A DNA stretch of 64,000 nt from an uncultured Bacillales bacterium (GCA_946536225.1 CAMNEE010000003.1:25533-89532); one strand, 5' to 3'; shown: positions 44,404-53,170, counted from the stretch's first letter. Numbers and translations are program-made. Notes: generated by a model not told the origin, from the letters alone.

Positions 44404-45659
44404 TTATCTACTCATTTTTTTAATATTAATTGTACTTTTTATTAATATAAATAAACTTAACGATAATAAACTAACATATGTATAAATATTATCAATTGTC
44501 TTAGGATTAGTAACTTCTTCTTTTTTAAGTCTATCTAAAATTAAAGTTTCACCTTCTACATAATGTACATATATACCTGTTCCTTGCCAATCAATAACAG
44601 GACCAAGAGTTCTTGGATCTATATCACTAAAAGTAAGATATTTATAAGTTTTATCACCAATTGTAACAGTATCATCAGTTATATCAAAAGGAATACCATA
44701 TGGAGCTACATCATCATAATCAGAACCATATATTAAACCGTATTCTTTACCATTTGCATCTTGTTGCAATAAATACAAATATCTATAATATCCACGATAT
44801 GCTTTATCTTCTGTTAATACATATGTATCACTTTCAGCTTCGCCTTTATTATTATATATTGTTTTGTTTGATATATCTGAGTCCATATTACCGATATACC
44901 ATTTATGTGAATAAGTATCTTCTTTTAATTCATTTAAATAAAGAGTTACTTTTCCATCATTATCTACTGTATAAGCGTATTTTTTATCATCTTTAGTGGC
45001 AATCTTAAAGCTTTCAATATTCTCAGGAAGAATTGCAAATCCCCAGAAAGATTTAGCGCCATTATTTACTAGTTTTTCATATTTCTTTATTTCAGGAGAA
45101 TCACTTCTATTAAAAACTATACATGCCTCATCATTTTCATTCATGCCATCGCACCCTATTACAAATGTAGGATAATCAGAATCATTTTCATCCTTAACAG
45201 CATATAACTCTAAAGAAACACTATCTTCAAATATTATTTTACTTTTATCTGTACTAGCAATTGGTGTTTCATAATGAGCATTTTTTTTTTATTAAGTATA
45301 AGCTTTCCCTTTCCAGTAATAGTAATATTTGTTTTATACTGGCCACCAGATACATATATAGCTAAAAAATCATTAGTACCTTCTACATTAAGTTTAAAAT
45401 CCTCACCCATATTATCTACATTTAGTGAGTAAGATCCTTTTAAATTTTTAATAGTTAAAGTATTTGTTGTTAAATCATAATTAACACCATTAAGTGCGTT
45501 ATTATCAACACTACCTAATTCATATATATCAAAAAAATTCCTATCAGGTTCTTCCATAAATGTTACTAATCCATATTCTTCTGAAGGACCATTATCAGCT
45601 TTTACTATTCCCATAAAAGAAATAAATAATAAAAATATAAAACATAAATACTTTTTCAT
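44404..45659 (-). pseudogene. Sortase-anchored surface protein (paralogue of 45754..47205) split by a frameshift at an A10 tract (minus strand; T10 at 45281..45290)
   Basis: The 141-aa ORF (signal peptide plus a domain homologous to the neighbour) ends just after 'NKKK'. A +1 A insertion fuses it in-frame to the 246-aa ORF, which ends with an 'NPKT' sorting signal. Confidence 0.55.
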
Positions 45660-45753
45660 AATAATCTCCTATACACTTTAAACTCTATCCTAGTTTTAGT
45701 ATATCAAACAAATATTTATAAAAAATACTTATATAAAAATAAAAGATACTAGT

Positions 45754-47205
45754 TTACACTAATATCTTCTTATTTGTTAGGATTAACAAACTAAATAATA
45801 ATAGACTTATATACAAATATATATTATCTCCAGTCTGAGGATTACTAATTACTTCTTCAGGTTCATCCCCTACCGTGAATGTAACACTTGAAGTTCTAGA
45901 GTCACTATAAGTTAAACTTAGAGTATGAACTCCATCACTTAAAGAATCTAAGTATTCATTATCTAAAGTAATAATTGTACTTCCTTCTTTAGAAGTAAAC
46001 TCAGTTATTTCTTTATCATCAACATATACTTTGCCACCATCTTCAAATAATGAATAAGGTGCATCAAACCTAAATACTAAGTCTTCACTACCTCTATAAT
46101 AATCTTGATCCTTACCTTCAACAGCATTATATGTTTTAAATTTACTTATAAATACATCTTCGTTAATAAAATGTTTATAAACCTTACGTTCTAACTTTGA
46201 TGCATTCACTGTATTATCAGGAATAACATAAGGGTATTCTCCATCAGAAATAATAACTTCACCAGTATATTTAAATACATTATCATTATTATCTACATAA
46301 TACCAATTACCAATACTATCAAACATTTCATATAAGGATTCTACATGAAATTGATAAACATCATAAGAGTCAGTAGTTTCTACATAACCCATATTTCTTA
46401 ACTCATCAAGAGTATAATAATCGTAATCATCCATATGATCTACATAATCAAATGTTTTACCATTATATGAATATTCTTTAATATTACTTAAGTATATTTT
46501 ATATTCATCACCATCATAATGCTCTACAACATATTTTTTTGAATCTTTAGTATATATTTTTTTATAATTAATTTTTTCATCAAATCTCACAGTAGCAAAA
46601 GCTATACCAGTATTAATATCTCTAAAGAATTCAGTAGTTCCTTCTACAGCCTCTCTACCTTCTAAATAAAGTGCATGACTAATACTTTTAGACATTGATG
46701 TAACTTTAATTAAAGGATCATTATTAAATCCTTCTTCCTTATCAATAATCACATTAACTGTACTATCAATAATTAATCTTCCATTAAATACTTCAATGGC
46801 ATCATTATATCCTGTTTCTCTTCTTATTACTAAAGTTCCATCACCAATTATATGTAGATATGTTGTATTAATTCTATCAAAATTAGAACTAACAATATCA
46901 CCATCAATAAAAATACGTTTAATAGTATTAACACCAATTAATTTAAGTTTGAAGCTCTCACCCATATCTTCTACTCTTAATTCATTAATTGATACATCAT
47001 CAAAAATTAATGTATTAGATTTTTCATCATATGTAACACCTGTTACTGCATCATTATTAATAGTATCTCTGTCTTTCCTAATATACTCACCATCAATTTT
47101 AATAGTTGCATCACTCTGTGGCCAATAATCAGATGCATTAGCTGCATCCAAGTTAATAAATAACCCCATAATTAAAACAAACAAAAAAATAACTCTTCTC
47201 TTCAT
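45754..47205 (-). CDS. Sortase-anchored cell-surface protein
   Basis: Signal peptide; C-terminal 'NPQTG' followed by a hydrophobic stretch and a basic tail. Confidence 0.6.
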   Translation of the reverse strand: MKRRVIFLFVLIMGLFINLDAANASDYWPQSDATIKIDGEYIRKDRDTINNDAVTGVTYDEKSNTLIFDDVSINELRVEDMGESFKLKLIGVNTIKRIFIDGDIVSSNFDRINTTYLHIIGDGTLVIRRETGYNDAIEVFNGRLIIDSTVNVIIDKEEGFNNDPLIKVTSMSKSISHALYLEGREAVEGTTEFFRDINTGIAFATVRFDEKINYKKIYTKDSKKYVVEHYDGDEYKIYLSNIKEYSYNGKTFDYVDHMDDYDYYTLDELRNMGYVETTDSYDVYQFHVESLYEMFDSIGNWYYVDNNDNVFKYTGEVIISDGEYPYVIPDNTVNASKLERKVYKHFINEDVFISKFKTYNAVEGKDQDYYRGSEDLVFRFDAPYSLFEDGGKVYVDDKEITEFTSKEGSTIITLDNEYLDSLSDGVHTLSLTYSDSRTSSVTFTVGDEPEEVISNPQTGDNIYLYISLLLFSLLILTNKKILV

Positions 47206-47360
47206 ATAAACAATCCTCTACTCTATCTATATTATAAGTATAGGATTATTTATAAGTCAACAAAGAAAAATGAATAAAAACAGGTGTATTAATTATATGT
47301 ATTTTGCTCTCTTCAGGGGGACCGAACAAATGTATGTTCTATACCTGTGATAAAAGATTA

Positions 47361-47386
47361 AAACCACGTAATTACGTGGTTTTTTA
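47361..47386. terminator. Bidirectional rho-independent terminator at the island boundary
   Basis: Perfect palindrome aaaccacgtaat/attacgtggttt flanked by A4 and T6. Confidence 0.6.
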
Positions 47387-47531
47387 GTACTCTTCAATTT
47401 ATAAGAATTTATAAAAGTTTAAATATTAGTATAGGTAAAAGTATAGATAAAACTAAAATATACTTACTATAGCAATTATTATATTAAAATAAAAAGTCGA
47501 ATATTGTAACTTTACTCGACTTTTAAAATTT

Positions 47532-48014
47532 TTATATAAACGATTTATTCATATCTAAATTATATTCATTATAAATAAGGATTCTACTTTCCTCTTCTAA
47601 TACTTTGCATAAATCATATAAGAATCCGGTATAAATAATTAGTTGTTTTGATTCATAGCAATATCTCCACTTTTCAAAAGAGTCATTGATCTTATTTAAT
47701 TCTTCATCAAAATTATAATTGATCATTTTTGCTTTGATATTTATATTTTGTATTTGATTATATAAACTAACCAATTTATGTCCTTTTACTATTTCATGTT
47801 TTTGAATCATTAATATACTTTTAAAATATAATTCACAGGCAAATATAACATCAACTACAGAAGCAATAATAGTTGGATGCTTATGTCCAATAATGTTTCT
47901 AAAATCCAAAATATTATCACCTAAGATTTGAAATTCTCTTCCGCTCCTATATGCATTAATAGCCATTTTTGAAATACTATCTAATCCATTAAATTTTTTT
48001 TCGAAATCATTCAT
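47532..48014 (-). CDS. Hypothetical protein with HEPN-like Rx4H motif
   Basis: 160 aa, 'FRNIIGHKH'; predicted helical. Confidence 0.3.
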   Translation of the reverse strand: MNDFEKKFNGLDSISKMAINAYRSGREFQILGDNILDFRNIIGHKHPTIIASVVDVIFACELYFKSILMIQKHEIVKGHKLVSLYNQIQNINIKAKMINYNFDEELNKINDSFEKWRYCYESKQLIIYTGFLYDLCKVLEEESRILIYNEYNLDMNKSFI

Positions 48015-48017
48015 ATA

Positions 48018-48875
48018 CTATCTACTTTCTTTGAACATTTCATTTACCTGTTCATTATATATACTATTATTAATTTGATAGTCTAATTCTTTAGTCAATT
48101 CTTTAATATTAATTTCAATTGTTTCTTTATTAGTATTTAATTCATCAACCAATTGTTTTCCGATTCTTTCATTTTCTTCGATATACTTATTATTAGTATC
48201 GAACATCATATATCTTTTAACAACGCTCATTCCATTTTTTATACCATCTAAGAAACATGATATATTAACTAGATTAACATAGTTACAACAATTAATAAGA
48301 TTTAAATAAAAACCATTCTCTTCATTACCTATTTTTTTATTTAAATAATTCAAAAACATATATTCAATTGTAACCATTATATATTTTAAATTATTCAGCA
48401 TATATGCCTTATATTTAATAGTATTATCTAAATACGATACTAGTTCTTTCATACTACTAGGGTGAACTATTTTACATAAATACTTATATATATCATTGAA
48501 ATCTTCTTTTTCAAAATAACCAGTAAATAAATCGTCACAATTATCCTCAAGAACTTTCCTAAATTTACCTGGATATGTATCTATAGTAATAATCATCTTA
48601 TTATTATATGATGTCGAAATGATATACATAATGTTTTCATATAATGTTCTTAATATGGTTGAAGAATTAAACAAATCTTTTTGATCAAGAAGTTGATTAA
48701 CGGTTTTAAAATCATTAGTAATCTTTATATATATATTTCTAGATTTAGTATATTTACTAATTCTTTTAAACTCAAAATTAGCAATTTCATTAATATATAT
48801 ATAATGAGCACATTCTAACATTTTCATACATTTTTTGTAATCATTTAATCTTTTAACATAACTACTAACTTTCAT
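48018..48875 (-). CDS. Hypothetical protein (defence-island gene)
   Basis: 285 aa; 3-nt spacing to the downstream gene implies an operon. Confidence 0.35.
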   Translation of the reverse strand: MKVSSYVKRLNDYKKCMKMLECAHYIYINEIANFEFKRISKYTKSRNIYIKITNDFKTVNQLLDQKDLFNSSTILRTLYENIMYIISTSYNNKMIITIDTYPGKFRKVLEDNCDDLFTGYFEKEDFNDIYKYLCKIVHPSSMKELVSYLDNTIKYKAYMLNNLKYIMVTIEYMFLNYLNKKIGNEENGFYLNLINCCNYVNLVNISCFLDGIKNGMSVVKRYMMFDTNNKYIEENERIGKQLVDELNTNKETIEINIKELTKELDYQINNSIYNEQVNEMFKESR

Positions 48876-48889
48876 ATTTTCTCCTTGTA

Positions 48890-50143
48890 TTATCTATAAT
48901 CAACAGAATCAGGAATAAGCTTATTAATAATCGAATCATATTCCAAAGCATGCATATATAATGCTATTTGCGATATAACATATAACTCGTGATAATTTAA
49001 TCGACGCAAATCATCTTCAGTTATTTCAACATATTGTTGAAAGAAAGGTAGCAACAATTTATACATACTTAATGCGTATATTTTGTCACCATGTTTTTCA
49101 TTTAAATATATCACCTTGCTTAAATAATAATTATAATCTATTTTTCCATCTTTTAAATACACACTACCTAAAAGTAGTTTTTCAATAAGTTTATCAAAAA
49201 AAGATAGACAATTATAGTCCATATTTTGTAATTGTCTATGATATGCTTGAAGCGCATATTTTATAGCATGCTTATACTTTATAAAACTAGATTCATTATT
49301 TTTATTAGATATATTCATATTAAAAATATCAATAATCTCATTTATTTGATTTTCAATTTCGTTATTTCTTTCAGATGCTTCAATTTTTAAATTGTTTAAA
49401 TAATCCAGATAATCACTAAAATCTTTTGGTTTCAAAATGAATTTTTTTCTAAAATTATTAATAATATTCTTATTATAATTAATTATTACTTTTGATAAAC
49501 TATTTAATGAATAATACTTATACTTTATATAATTAAACAATTCATTAATAAATATTTCTTTATGAACAATAAGCCTATCTATTATATTATTATATGTTGT
49601 TATAATTAGGTCAGCTTTATTATTGCTTATTCTAAAAATCCCATTGTTCCACATAGCATACGGACTTACTTCAAATTCATCTTCTTGAAATATTGCGTGT
49701 TGTGAAGTGTCATTTGGATGTACTGAACTTAATGATCTAATATATTTAAAATAATCATCATCTAATTCCCAATCGGATTTATTGTTATTAACTGTAGAAT
49801 TAATACATTTAGATTTAAATATTACATTGTGTGCCGGAGTTCTAACATTGTATATTGAAAACGCATAATCTATGCACTCAATTAATACTCCTGCTTGTTC
49901 AATAAACTCAAAGAAATCAAAAGCACATCTCTCCCATGTACCATCATTTAATACCTTTTGATTTAAATATAAAACAAGGTCATCTATCCTATCCATAATA
50001 GTACAAATCGAATGCCATGAGTTCACTGGTTTTGTAGGTTTTTTCTTCCTGTAAAATTGATGTTTTAAAGATAAATCTATATAATCATTTACAACATTTC
50101 TAAATTTGTGTCCTACACTTGGATTTAATTTTATCTTAAACAT
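48890..50143 (-). CDS. Hypothetical protein (defence-island gene); start reassigned to an internal Met
   Basis: GGAGGA RBS precedes the ATG at 50143. Confidence 0.4.
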   Translation of the reverse strand: MFKIKLNPSVGHKFRNVVNDYIDLSLKHQFYRKKKPTKPVNSWHSICTIMDRIDDLVLYLNQKVLNDGTWERCAFDFFEFIEQAGVLIECIDYAFSIYNVRTPAHNVIFKSKCINSTVNNNKSDWELDDDYFKYIRSLSSVHPNDTSQHAIFQEDEFEVSPYAMWNNGIFRISNNKADLIITTYNNIIDRLIVHKEIFINELFNYIKYKYYSLNSLSKVIINYNKNIINNFRKKFILKPKDFSDYLDYLNNLKIEASERNNEIENQINEIIDIFNMNISNKNNESSFIKYKHAIKYALQAYHRQLQNMDYNCLSFFDKLIEKLLLGSVYLKDGKIDYNYYLSKVIYLNEKHGDKIYALSMYKLLLPFFQQYVEITEDDLRRLNYHELYVISQIALYMHALEYDSIINKLIPDSVDYR

Positions 50144-50212
50144 ATGTCCTCCAATCAAAAAAGAGTATATTCCATCTAAAAAAATGAAATACACTCTTAT
50201 TATCAAATATTA

Positions 50213-52102
50213 TTATACACTATTTATATGACCTTTCAAGTATTCATTTAATTTATCATTAGTACAATAAACATAACAGCCTTTCATTCCTCTAGTCATT
50301 AATGTTCTATATGTATTTTTAATAATATTATCAGCTATTCTATTAGCTTCTTCTTGTCCTTGTTCTTTAGCAATCTTATTAATACCTTTTAAAGATTGAT
50401 CTGTTCTAGCTCTTTTTGAATAATCAGTTACTATATGACCATTTTCATATCTCATATCATCACCAATAATAACTCCAACATAATCAAACTCTAAGCCTTG
50501 ACATGTATGAATACAACCAGCCTCATTTACTGATTCAGAATCTATAGCCCATGTTTGAGAATTACCTAGGTTCCAACTTATTCCAAAGTTATATTCAGGA
50601 ATAGTTATATCATGAACTTCAGAGTTATTCTTAGCATTACCTTCACTAATCCAATCCCAACAATATCCAGCTACTATTCTTGATTTATTATTTATAGTAT
50701 TCTTTTCTTCAATTGCTTTTCTCATTTCATTTGGATCATCAAATACTTTAAAATCATAATCAAAACCGTCTATATCAAAATTAGCTGTTTCTTTTATTTC
50801 TAATATATTATTTAGCCATGCAATATATCCATCAGAACCATTACATCTAAATTGACTATCTAATTCATAAGTGTATATACCAGCACCTAATTCAGTAGCA
50901 TATTTCTTAATCATATCTTCACTACCAATATCCTTAAGAGTTACTTTTTGATTTTCATCTATAAAGAATATTGAAAATTTAGAAGCATTAATAATTTCTT
51001 TAATTTGGTTTTCACCTTTGTTTTGGAACATACCAGATTTAGCATTTAATCTATGAGCTTCATCTACTACTAATACATCTAACTTATTACTATCTTCATC
51101 TACAAAGTTTCCAGACCCTTGGAATAAATGATTAATATAAGTTTGAGTATAGTTACCTCTTAGTTTAGCTGAGAATACACTTCTTGGAGCTGCATTCTTA
51201 GTTACATAGAAACAAGTCATACTCCTTCTATTAAACTCTACTAATAAATTAATAGCTAGAACTGATTTACCAGTTCCTGGTCCTCCTCTAACTATCATTA
51301 CATTCTTTTTATTATTGGCAACTGTATCAATAGCATTGCTTAAAGCGTATTCATATATAATCTTTTGTTCATCAATCATATAGAATTCTTTATTACCTTC
51401 TAACATGTTAGATAAAGAATCTTGTAACATTTTAGATGGTCTAATTCTCCCATGATCTATTTCATAAAGAATACTTCCATCATCACCATCTTCAATGTAT
51501 CTTTTAATAAAATCCCTAAGTTTAATTACATCATTATGTCCAAATAAAGGTGCTTGAGATGTATACTCTTTATAGTTATCAGATAATAATGTATCATCAT
51601 TTTCAAAATAATAATTATGTAAGTATGCACATGGTACTACATTAATATCCTTTAATTGCACTGATTCATTATAATCTTTAATTAGATTAGCATAAGTCAT
51701 AGCTTGATAAGACGGATGGTTAACATCTCTTAATCCTCCACCAGTATAAGTGTTAACTTTATAAATACCATCTAAATTAGCTACTTCAGTAGCTTTATCC
51801 CATTGTTTTAATTCGACAATTACAACATTGGATTTATTTTTATTAAATCCAGACATCATAAAGTCTATTCTACAACCAGTTGGAGGAATATTATATTCAA
51901 TAGCTATACCAGTATTATCTGGTATTTCATTATCACTTAATACACCTCTCATATATTGCATAGAATTTTTCCATGAATTAAATTCTGGTGCACTAGGTCT
52001 TCTTTTAATTTTTTCAATATATTTATTTCTAATCTTGTCAGCAATTATTCCTAAATCTACATCATTAATAAATCCTGATTTTACTCCTTCATATACTAAC
52101 AT
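50213..52102 (-). CDS. DUF2075-family protein: N-terminal PD-(D/E)XK-like nuclease module plus SF1-like P-loop ATPase
   Basis: N-terminus 'MLVYEGVKSGFINDV', 'RIDFMM...VVIVELKQW' nuclease-like motif, Walker A 'GGPGTGKS', C-terminal '...TRGMKGCYVY'. Confidence 0.55.
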   Translation of the reverse strand: MLVYEGVKSGFINDVDLGIIADKIRNKYIEKIKRRPSAPEFNSWKNSMQYMRGVLSDNEIPDNTGIAIEYNIPPTGCRIDFMMSGFNKNKSNVVIVELKQWDKATEVANLDGIYKVNTYTGGGLRDVNHPSYQAMTYANLIKDYNESVQLKDINVVPCAYLHNYYFENDDTLLSDNYKEYTSQAPLFGHNDVIKLRDFIKRYIEDGDDGSILYEIDHGRIRPSKMLQDSLSNMLEGNKEFYMIDEQKIIYEYALSNAIDTVANNKKNVMIVRGGPGTGKSVLAINLLVEFNRRSMTCFYVTKNAAPRSVFSAKLRGNYTQTYINHLFQGSGNFVDEDSNKLDVLVVDEAHRLNAKSGMFQNKGENQIKEIINASKFSIFFIDENQKVTLKDIGSEDMIKKYATELGAGIYTYELDSQFRCNGSDGYIAWLNNILEIKETANFDIDGFDYDFKVFDDPNEMRKAIEEKNTINNKSRIVAGYCWDWISEGNAKNNSEVHDITIPEYNFGISWNLGNSQTWAIDSESVNEAGCIHTCQGLEFDYVGVIIGDDMRYENGHIVTDYSKRARTDQSLKGINKIAKEQGQEEANRIADNIIKNTYRTLMTRGMKGCYVYCTNDKLNEYLKGHINSV

Positions 52103-52113
52103 AAATTTACCTC

Positions 52114-52428
52114 TTACAACTTATTATATTTTGTGCTCTTTCCTTTTGCTTTTTCAACCGGATATTTCTTTGCTGTCTTTTCCATTTTATCTAAAACTAT
52201 TTGTTTAGGATCTACACCTAGCTTATCAGCCATTAATAAACAATAATTTATAACATCAGCAAGTTCTTCTTTTACTTCATCTAAATTATATTCATTATTC
52301 CATTGAAAGCATTCTAATAGCTCACCAGCTTCAATAGAAATACTTTTTGCTAAGTTTTCTGGAGAATGAAATTGATCCCAATCTCTTGCTTCATTAAATT
52401 CTTTGATTTGCTTAATTACTTCTTCCAT
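52114..52428 (-). CDS. MazG-like nucleoside triphosphate pyrophosphohydrolase (small single-domain form)
   Basis: 'FHSPENLAKSISIEAGELLECFQW' all-alpha NTP-PPase signature (EExxE/D). Confidence 0.55.
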   Translation of the reverse strand: MEEVIKQIKEFNEARDWDQFHSPENLAKSISIEAGELLECFQWNNEYNLDEVKEELADVINYCLLMADKLGVDPKQIVLDKMEKTAKKYPVEKAKGKSTKYNKL

Positions 52429-52522
52429 ACATTATCCCTCTTTATTTATTTTAGCATATTTTCAATGTATTTTTACAAAATTAATCAATAAAAAAAGGAC
52501 TATAAAAGTCCTTAAAATTATT

Positions 52523-53170
52523 CTATTTATTTAATAAACGATAACCTTCTATGATTATTTGTTTAACAATATCTTCATCATATTCATTTTCTAGTTTTTT
52601 AGCTAACTCTATTAACTTATCCGGATTATTATCAACAACAACATTTTCCTTCATAACTGGATAAATTAAATATTTATTATCTAAAACTTCAATAATGATA
52701 TCACTTAAAACAGCAATTATACTATTTCTAAACATTTCTACTTTTTCTTCAGTGTTATTAAAATAAATATTATATTTTCCACCTTGATCTAATCTAACTA
52801 TTCCATTACCTAAATCCAATTCGTAGTTATCATTGTTTTTAAAATAATCAAAAGCTGTATAAAAATTTGATAGCTTTCCATTAAAATCATCAACTAATTT
52901 ATTATTTTCAACAACTTCCATTTCATTATAAATACAGTTTTTAGTTTTTGAGACATCTAAAAAATAATGTTTTGAAGGATCATTTAAAATACCAATTAAA
53001 GTATTTGCTAAGTCATGACTAGTTGTTAAAAAATAATTGCAAGTACTGCTTTTACTTTTAGTCTCCTTAGTTTTATCTAATGATGTATATTTATATATGT
53101 TTGTTCCAACTGATTCTGTATTAGATAGTCTAATTCTAATTTTATTTTTATTAAGTGGTTCTACTACCAT
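52523..53170 (-). CDS. Hypothetical protein
   Basis: ORF only, 215 aa. Confidence 0.3.
   Translation of the reverse strand: MVVEPLNKNKIRIRLSNTESVGTNIYKYTSLDKTKETKSKSSTCNYFLTTSHDLANTLIGILNDPSKHYFLDVSKTKNCIYNEMEVVENNKLVDDFNGKLSNFYTAFDYFKNNDNYELDLGNGIVRLDQGGKYNIYFNNTEEKVEMFRNSIIAVLSDIIIEVLDNKYLIYPVMKENVVVDNNPDKLIELAKKLENEYDEDIVKQIIIEGYRLLNK

Follow-up and report, generated by a model that had tools for sequence, protein, structure and literature searches.

Five adjacent Bacillales genes probably make up two independent cassettes, a MazG-like/DUF2075 pair and a trio headed by a restriction-linked protein family

Five contiguous genes lie at positions 47,532-52,428, all on the minus strand, of a 64,000-nucleotide (nt) stretch of DNA from an uncultured Bacillales bacterium (GCA_946536225.1, CAMNEE010000003.1:25533-89532). 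This whole stretch is hereafter called the window, and coordinates refer to it unless another locus is named. The genes encode a MazG-like protein, a DUF2075 protein, and three proteins of 417, 285, and 160 amino acids (aa). Comparison with homologous loci makes it likely, in our view, that they form two independent cassettes, the first a conserved MazG-DUF2075 pair and the second headed by a protein whose family is linked to type I restriction. Cassette 1 (52428..50213) consists of the MazG-like and DUF2075 genes, and cassette 2 (~50239..47532) of the 417-, 285-, and 160-aa genes. An earlier reading, made from the DNA sequence alone (the sequence-only reading), had proposed one or two systems; the division into two independent cassettes stands, but a single joint system does not. 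The five open reading frames (ORF) that it listed were all found, on the minus strand and with the sizes it gave, as was the 11-nt gap between the MazG-like and DUF2075 genes:

52428..52114, minus strand: MazG-like gene, 104 aa
52102..50213, minus strand: DUF2075 gene, 629 aa
50143..48890, minus strand: 417-aa gene, with an ATG start behind a GGAGG ribosome-binding site
48875..48018, minus strand: 285-aa gene
48014..47532, minus strand: 160-aa gene

A mechanical call of the third ORF gives 438 aa from a TTG codon; the ATG codon with GGAGG was preferred, which gives 417 aa. The genes had been described as tightly packed, and this is so within cassette 2, where the gaps are 14 nt (417/285) and 3 nt (285/160), but not between the DUF2075 and 417-aa genes, which are 69 nt apart with a promoter-like site and a hairpin. 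The five-gene region has a G+C content of 22-29% and is AT-rich, as is the remainder of the window. Its setting is a defense island.

The separation of the two cassettes is apparent from their distribution. No homolog of the 417-aa or 285-aa protein was found in 80 DUF2075 loci (one genome per species, 56-96% identity to the window protein), so that the functional link of the three downstream genes to MazG/DUF2075, suggested by the sequence-only reading, did not hold up. MazG and DUF2075 are in turn absent beside 417-aa homologs in the genome loci fetched, with one exception; 80 metagenome loci collected for the 417-aa family were not screened for either gene. In one locus (L011; loci are numbered with the prefix L), a DUF2075 protein 93% identical to that of the window is encoded, together with MazG, ~5.5 kb from a 417-aa homolog that is 46% identical. 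Four unrelated genes separate MazG/DUF2075 from the 417-aa homolog there and, together with the 46% identity, they indicate independent acquisition.

The MazG-like and DUF2075 genes are a strongly conserved functional pair. The 80 DUF2075 loci come from metagenome-assembled Bacilli and Clostridia, Saccharibacteria, Methanobrevibacter, Bifidobacteriaceae, Ureibacillus, and others, many of them being related gut Bacilli genomes assembled from metagenomes. Of the 80, 65 contain a MazG-like gene, and one more copy is cut by a contig end. The MazG-like gene lies directly upstream of DUF2075 in 26 loci; in 31 it is also upstream, with a single gene of 0.2-1.3 kb inserted between the two; in 5 it is directly downstream, and in 3 further away. 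MazG-DUF2075 gaps go down to 0-11 nt (zero in L074 and L076), suggesting translational coupling, and where one of the two proteins diverges between loci the other tends to do so as well (identities correlated at r = 0.67). The pair is also carried by a Halalkalicoccus plasmid, on which a gene annotated "nucleotide pyrophosphohydrolase" is followed by one annotated "DUF2075 domain-containing protein," and by the record of Microcystis phage Mwe-JY31, whose MazG-like protein is 53% identical to that of the window. No MazG match was found in the remaining 15 loci, ~six of which have flanks too short to judge. Because ~nine homologs with adequate flanks have no MazG gene, the DUF2075 helicase can stand alone. 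Our literature search found no paper linking DUF2075 with MazG; a broader search on pyrophosphatase and two Pfam accessions found no DUF2075 paper, and the combination of MazG, Schlafen, and "defense system" was not found in any paper.

The MazG-DUF2075 operon behaves as a slot for defense-type cargo. The genes inserted between MazG and DUF2075 in 31 of the 80 loci belong to at least ~15 unrelated families, including HNH, three HEPN types, and reverse transcriptase; among their Pfam families are HNH_2, HEPN_AbiU2, Hypoth_Ymh, DUF4145, HEPN (PF05168), and RVT_1. Transmembrane proteins and a recurring ORF of ~72-75 aa are found in the same position. Upstream of MazG, a gene with a Fic-type motif (HPFREGNTRT, recognized by eye) is present in 17 of the 80 loci, mostly directly adjacent. 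C5-cytosine methylase genes lie within 6 kb in ~11 of the 80 loci and also beside the window copy, and other neighbors in the DUF2075 loci include restriction genes and serine recombinases. In five loci a MutT/NUDIX-like gene, likewise recognized by eye, is near DUF2075, and in L075 it occupies the directly upstream position; it represents a second nucleotide pyrophosphohydrolase fold close to the DUF2075 helicase. On a Hymenobacter canadensis plasmid (L176:4001-7987), the helicase is arranged differently, as two tandem DUF2075 genes without MazG that lie beside a DNA methyltransferase gene and a DUF4747 gene. Coordinates of these neighbors are as follows:

Genes inserted between MazG and DUF2075 (examples): L014:5187-5987, L015:5355-5933, L020:5282-5986, L023:5388-5993, L030:4425-4922, L058:4696-5997
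Gene with Fic-type motif, 278 aa: L015:4194-5027, and 16 further loci
NUDIX-like genes: L075:5602-5976, L023:4642-5025, L030:6856-7239, L032:7878-8261, L088:4786-5184

The sequence of the 104-aa protein bears out its assignment as MazG-like, because it matches PF12643 with E = 2.9e-22 (79.2 bits versus a Pfam cut-off of 27). The closest solved sequences are those of pyrophosphatase 4qgp (1e-19) and of dCTP pyrophosphatase 1 (DCTPP1/RS21-C6; 1.4e-16). The ExxE...ExxD metal site is formed by E33, E36, E55, and D58, which are invariant in 66 MazG-like sequences, and there is no match to a component in PADLOC-DB v2.0.0. The protein therefore resembles, as far as sequence homology goes, a single-domain, DCTPP1-like, all-alpha nucleoside triphosphate (NTP) pyrophosphohydrolase, and it has in common with DCTPP1 (RS21-C6, XTP3-TPA) and 4qgp both the single-domain size and the intact metal site. 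Whereas DCTPP1-type enzymes are stand-alone housekeeping sanitizers, the window protein is encoded in an operon with a helicase, in a context of defense islands and mobile elements. In L011, the codon exactly at the position of the invariant Trp43 (CFQ-W-NN) of the MazG-like protein is an in-frame TGA, and gene calling under code 11 had split this gene (L011:18-331). TGA is probably a Trp codon in the L011 organism (genetic code 4), its MazG-like gene then being intact and not a pseudogene.

Residues 266-614 of the DUF2075 protein match PF09848, now named SLFN-g3_helicase, with E = 3.7e-106, and the match covers profile positions 1-353 of 354. The Walker A motif of the protein (G273-K279, GGPGTGK) is intact, in line with the P-loop and DUF2075 assignment of the sequence-only reading. 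This motif and D347-E348-x-H350-R351 (DEAHR) are invariant, as are many other positions, and the C-terminal part is predicted to be a P-loop helicase/ATPase of the Schlafen group 3 type. The N-terminal part is a domain of its own:

51353..52102, minus strand: DUF2075 N-terminal domain, residues 1-250, no family assignment, with E69...D80...E97-x-K99

The "D...ELK" motif noticed previously in this protein, and read then as an Mrr/NERD-like nuclease module, is present here as D80...E97-L-K99, and E69, D80, E97, and K99 are invariant in 25 DUF2075 homologs (47-93% identity in the N-terminal domain, 57-93% over the full length). These residues make the domain a candidate PD-(D/E)XK nuclease. No Pfam family matched it, searches of PDB sequences matched P-loop proteins and nothing for the N terminus, and alignment with the HsdR_N profile (hhalign) was not significant, so that the nuclease reading comes from the motif. 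PADLOC matches of the DUF2075 protein (AbiO, Nhi, and PDC-S41) are all weak and involve only the helicase core; the Nhi model covers only residues 242-558 (profile positions 183-427 of 470, E = 2.4e-14). Both Nhi of S. epidermidis (SERP2475) (bioRxiv 10.1101/776245) and Nhi-like of Millman et al. 2022 (bioRxiv 10.1101/2022.05.11.491447) have been shown to be single-gene anti-phage defenses combining a nuclease with DUF2075. The window protein has in common with them a C-terminal DUF2075/SF1-type helicase, an N-terminal D...ExK signature, and a defense-island setting. It differs from them in that its N-terminal domain matches nothing, the Nhi model being confined to the helicase core, and in that Nhi acts as a single gene, whereas the clade of the window protein is paired with a MazG-like protein in 65 of 80 loci.

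These enzymatic assignments also fit a housekeeping or DNA repair function, in which the MazG-like protein would clear 5-methyl-dCTP or non-canonical deoxynucleoside triphosphates (dNTP) and the helicase would process damaged DNA. The closest solved homologs of the MazG-like protein are house-cleaning enzymes of the DCTPP1 type, C5-cytosine methylase genes lie near some of the loci and beside the window copy, the DUF2075 protein is very highly conserved (56-93%), and some of its homologs lie without MazG among ordinary genes. We nevertheless judge this explanation unlikely, although it keeps some weight, because the pair is spread patchily across the domains of life, with copies on plasmids and in a phage record, has genes of the abortive infection (Abi) type embedded between its members, and has a Fic-like gene, serine recombinases, and restriction genes as neighbors. 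In addition, related nuclease + DUF2075 proteins have been shown to defend against phage.

The 417-aa protein that heads cassette 2 belongs to a large family, of which 77 relatives were found by a word-based search. Among 1.84 billion cluster representatives, 638 matched in a profile search with E <= 1e-3, 425 of them with E <= 1e-10. What links the family to type I restriction-modification operons is the location of distant members between hsdS and hsdR. In 80 metagenome loci, from a scan seeded with a 15-sequence alignment, type I restriction genes are within 5 kb of the 417-aa homolog in 50, hsdR is directly downstream of it in 38, and the order hsdS - 417-aa family member - hsdR is found in 26, the neighbors being confirmed as HsdS and HsdR by Pfam. 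Other members adjoin BREX genes, a Dcm methylase gene with MutH, an Abi_2 gene, or a TIR-like gene, and the 417-aa cassette is found in integrase-bearing elements. A scan of viral contigs for the family found nothing. The ~400-aa ORFs upstream of the 417-aa homologs in L011, L012, and L013 were considered as a conserved fourth gene and rejected, since they are mutually unrelated and belong to no Pfam family.

Only three residues (R136, H142, and R259) are invariant in 58 family members down to 18% identity, two of them within the motif RSLxxxHPxxT. None of the 58 members has a Pfam, NCBIfam, or convincing PADLOC match, the latter search yielding two single chance-level hits, and no P-loop or ATPase family was matched in these databases; the window protein itself has no PADLOC-DB v2.0.0 match. 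The AlphaFold model of the 417-aa protein has a predicted local distance difference test score (pLDDT) of 93.2 and a predicted template modeling score (pTM) of 0.89, and it consists largely of helices, with one small sheet of three strands. It has no significant fold match in PDB or BFVD, and a profile search of PDB sequences with the family returned only designed helical proteins. The spacing of R136-x5-H142 fits the Rx4-6H motif of HEPN proteins and is invariant in the 58 sequences. The sequence-only reading had noted neither this motif nor the tie of the family to type I operons. Assignment of the 417-aa protein as a HEPN ribonuclease (RNase) is nevertheless not supported, as its model matches no HEPN fold around the motif.

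The position of the distant family members is that of the anticodon nuclease gene prrC, which lies between hsdS and hsdR in the EcoprrI locus (bioRxiv 10.1101/2024.01.29.577857). This PrrC-like position suggests a latent effector coupled to the type I restriction enzyme. Unlike PrrC, the 417-aa family has no ABC-ATPase/P-loop and no sequence or fold similarity to it, and its conserved set is R136, H142, and R259. The window copy lies outside a type I locus and carries a DUF5677-like partner instead of being embedded in one. Payne et al. have shown that embedding inside a defense system predicts a defense function (bioRxiv 10.1101/2024.01.29.577857). The same guilt-by-embedding logic (Payne et al. 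2024; PADLOC PDC) applies to the 417-aa family and to the cargo of the MazG-DUF2075 operon. No PADLOC v2 model matches any of the 58 members of the 417-aa family convincingly, and DUF2075 matches PDC-S41 weakly and partially.

The partner of the 417-aa protein in the window, the 285-aa protein, scores 29.2 bits against DUF5677 (PF18928), for a cut-off of 27.1, but the match covers only profile positions 7-52 of 166 and no single domain passes. The same model is matched by 10 of 21 homologs of the 285-aa protein, which would make it a marginal, peripheral DUF5677 member on sequence criteria. Its conserved residues are L75-R76...E80 and K135..H138-P139. Neither a profile search of PDB sequences with the 285-aa family nor PADLOC-DB v2.0.0 gave anything useful or matching, respectively. 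The 285-aa gene lies 8-23 nt behind the 417-aa homolog in the window, L004-7, L012-13, L095-101, and L105-106, where the 417-aa homolog is at least ~44% identical, and this order and spacing are kept while identity falls to 49% for the 417-aa protein and to 32% for the 285-aa protein. In L011 and L102-104, the 417-aa homolog has no 285-aa partner, and the 417/285 link is facultative. The 297-aa gene behind the 417-aa homolog in L008-10 was compared as a possible 285-aa homolog and is unrelated. A pattern Y-x-Y-[IL]-x-x-x-(x-x)-V-H-P with a conserved His-Pro is common to residues 131-146 of the 417-aa protein and residues 130-141 of the 285-aa protein. When the two families were aligned with hhalign, the VHP motifs were superimposed without significance (E = 0.1), and it is possible from their sequences that the two proteins are distant paralogs.

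Cassette 2 has a promoter-like site and a hairpin leader in front of the 417-aa gene:

50212..50239, minus strand: promoter-like site TTGAAA-16-TATAAT with 11 of 12 matches, which overlaps the end of the DUF2075 coding sequence
50161..50198, minus strand: leader hairpin of 17 bp, followed by T6, GATTGGAGG (ribosome-binding site), and ATG

The leader RNA folds with -19.3 kcal/mol (z = -4.47 versus shuffled sequences) and matches no Rfam family. It is part of a recurring block, in which TATAAT is followed after ~14 nt by AGAGTGTATTTC...GGAATATRCTCT, T6, GATTGGAGG, and ATG. The block precedes ~49%-identical 417-aa homologs in the non-identical loci L004-7 (after hsdS), L095-101, L115, and L117, and in most of these other leader loci TATAAT is clear and at a fixed distance from the hairpin. 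The loci that share the block differ widely in their neighborhood, and their nucleotide identity to the window is 76-83% in the leader, 60-61% in the coding sequence, and 27-47% further upstream. Because the block recurs before diverged 417-aa homologs elsewhere, the 417-aa cassette has its own promoter and a terminator-like leader. At the corresponding position in L012 and L013 there is another hairpin, of different sequence but likewise with a T-run. The hairpin of the window looks like a terminator or attenuator that belongs to cassette 2; the leader may act as an attenuator or as a small RNA, and from its sequence we infer that the hairpin attenuates expression. Copies of the leader are located as follows:

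L004:9946-9984
L095:4946-4984
L097:4944-4982
L099:4945-4983
L101:4946-4984
L115, minus strand
L117

The 160-aa protein is the third member of the cassette. It has nine homologs, and those on usefully long contigs are the third gene of the same trio, the set 417 + 285 + 160 being kept in L012 and L013. The sequence-only reading had proposed it as a HEPN candidate from the peptide FRNIIGHKH, taken as an Rx4-6H motif, and here the fold and the motif have to be separated. The peptide corresponds to residues 38-46, R39 and H44 are not conserved in ~50%-identical homologs, and residues 38-45 form a loop with a pLDDT below 50, which disqualifies it as the HEPN motif. Moreover, no Rx4-6H motif is conserved anywhere in the alignment of the homologs. 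The fold fared better. As assessed by Foldseek, the top seven PDB matches of the model (pLDDT 82.5) are all HEPN proteins, i.e. 4nqf (two chains), HepT 6m6w, 1wol, 1ufb, 2hsb, and 7bxo. The best is 4nqf, with a probability of 1.00 and a template modeling score (TM) of 0.55-0.60, and the E-values of the seven are weak (0.14-0.7). In addition, a 165-aa protein encoded in L030, where its gene sits between MazG and DUF2075, is 31% identical to the 160-aa protein and has a Pfam HEPN match at 9.9e-6.

The 160-aa protein itself has no direct Pfam match and no PADLOC-DB v2.0.0 match. Its family gave nothing useful in a profile search of PDB sequences and nothing in hhalign comparisons with the 417-aa and 285-aa families. 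The invariant elements are NAYRSGR, FACEL..K, H79, and WRYCYE, and their E..K / H / RY pattern presumably resembles the classical HEPN signature. The model thus probably has a HEPN fold of the PF05168 type, since its best PDB matches are HEPN proteins of that type (4nqf, TT1696 1ufb, and ST0689 1wol) and HepT toxins. Unlike these proteins, it has neither Rx4-6H (Rx4HxY) nor an adjacent nucleotidyltransferase antitoxin, and its family is tiny. Because no Rx4-6H motif is conserved in the family, RNase activity is not implied, and the missing catalytic motif makes a regulatory/binding, non-catalytic, or non-canonical protein more likely than an RNase.

Cassette 2 could also be a toxin-antitoxin or addiction module for maintenance of the island, with the 417-aa protein perhaps as the toxin and the 285-/160-aa proteins or the leader RNA as the antidote. 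The gaps of 14 and 3 nt, the cassette's own promoter, and the terminator-like leader resemble the type III layout of promoter, terminator, and toxin; the cassette is found in integrase-bearing elements, and the HEPN fold is common in toxin-antitoxin pairs. We consider such a module unlikely. The leader lacks the tandem repeats of an antitoxin RNA, the partner is facultative, with distant 417-aa homologs standing alone between hsdS and hsdR, and the 160-aa protein does not have the catalytic Rx4-6H. Toxin-antitoxin and defense roles can, moreover, coexist.

It is less easy still to see MazG and DUF2075 as mere conserved flanks of an integration hotspot, sharing an island backbone and no joint function. 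Unrelated cargo lies between the two genes in 31 of 80 loci, and many loci come from related gut Bacilli, but the pair persists in different surroundings in a haloarchaeon, a cyanophage record, Saccharibacteria, and methanogens. Its order flips in the five loci with MazG directly downstream while adjacency is kept, and the small gap in the 26 loci with MazG directly upstream suggests translational coupling; we give the hotspot explanation a poor chance. A single abortive-infection system of all five genes, in which DUF2075/MazG would sense or prime and the downstream three would be the effectors, is very improbable: although the five genes of the window adjoin one another in a single orientation, and L011 has DUF2075 (93%) and MazG ~5.5 kb from a 417-aa homolog, comparative context largely refutes it, because 417/285 homologs are missing from the 80 DUF2075 loci and occur without MazG/DUF2075 beside type I restriction, BREX, and other restriction genes, the promoter and leader move along with cassette 2, and in L011 four unrelated genes split the modules and the 417-aa protein is only 46% identical.

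On balance, we favor the view that either cassette defends against phage, a prediction from sequence against which several points weigh. The roles suggested for all five genes are inferred from context and homology. For cassette 1, the ~nine DUF2075 homologs with adequate flanks and no MazG (56-69% identity) are found in some cases among ordinary-looking genes, DCTPP1-like enzymes also serve as housekeeping nucleotide sanitizers, and it is a motif that makes the N terminus of DUF2075 a candidate for a nuclease fold. For cassette 2, the window 417-aa gene is not beside any type I system. Its model matches no HEPN or other nuclease fold in PDB or BFVD, and in contrast to canonical HEPN proteins R136 terminates a helix and H142 belongs to a loop. 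The 285-aa family is also found behind other genes, without a 417-aa homolog, and a DUF5677 gene alone in E. faecalis was not among the protective genes (bioRxiv 10.1101/2025.10.07.681051).

The specific mechanisms that can be proposed for the two cassettes are doubtful in their detail. In cassette 1, the helicase, probably with a nuclease, would act on phage DNA or replication intermediates, like Nhi and Nhi-like. The pyrophosphatase would hydrolyze canonical or modified dCTP/dNTP to deoxynucleoside monophosphate and pyrophosphate, which would starve phage replication or deny the phage protective modified bases. The cassette also tolerates the insertion of other defense genes between its two members, in the manner of known multi-gene defense systems. 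Cassette 2 would be expressed from its own promoter, with the terminator-like leader hairpin probably attenuating expression. The 417-aa protein would be a restriction-linked back-up or abortive-infection effector, PrrC-like in position, whose chemistry would center on the invariant Arg/His/Arg set. In this clade it would work with a DUF5677-like partner, to which a narrow subclade would add the small HEPN-fold protein, for which the role of a regulatory or binding subunit is likelier than that of an RNase.

The surroundings of the five genes in the window include further terminators and neighboring ORFs:

52495..52513, minus strand: terminator-like hairpin with T-run, 7-bp stem with 3 GC pairs, which ends the upstream 215-aa gene and is the 5' boundary of cassette 1
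47360..47383, minus strand: terminator-like hairpin, 3' of the 160-aa gene

A weaker GTCGA...TCGAC + T5 hairpin, seen by eye at ~47491-47520, lies right after the stop codon of the 160-aa gene. The 215-aa ORF (52523..53170, minus strand), which has its own terminator, is located between the methylase gene and MazG. It has no match in Pfam, NCBIfam, or PADLOC, only chance-level matches in PHROGs, and no homolog in the fetched loci apart from copies of the same contig. On the other side, three signal-peptide proteins of 483, 141, and 246 aa are encoded at 44404..47205 (minus strand), and these genes mark the end of the defense island. Two of the three end with NPQTG or NPKT, a hydrophobic tail, and basic residues, which looks like a sortase-type cell-wall sorting signal.

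Both cassettes are candidates only, of the kind yielded in large numbers by defense-island mining. It is possible, and put forward tentatively, that they represent two undescribed modules, one a two-component pyrophosphatase + nuclease-helicase and the other a PrrC-position effector family under a conserved leader. Cassette 1 may then span bacteria and archaea and couple the destruction of nucleotides (or modified nucleotides) to an attack on DNA, and its operon may be a docking site for other Abi genes, while the free-standing form of the 417-aa protein may be controlled by a leader with a promoter and a terminator-like hairpin. The 417-aa family, with 638 representatives and no Pfam, NCBIfam, or PADLOC v2 model, would substantially enlarge the set of passenger genes of type I operons, and it offers invariant residues for mutagenesis and a conserved leader RNA that possibly controls expression. 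Should MazG and DUF2075 together prove to protect against phage, helicases of the Nhi/Schlafen class would be able to rely on a dNTP pyrophosphatase dedicated to them. This would be a new route to nucleotide-based immunity, and the pair would offer a testable counterpart, in prokaryotes, of joint action by a DCTPP1-like enzyme and a Schlafen-type helicase.

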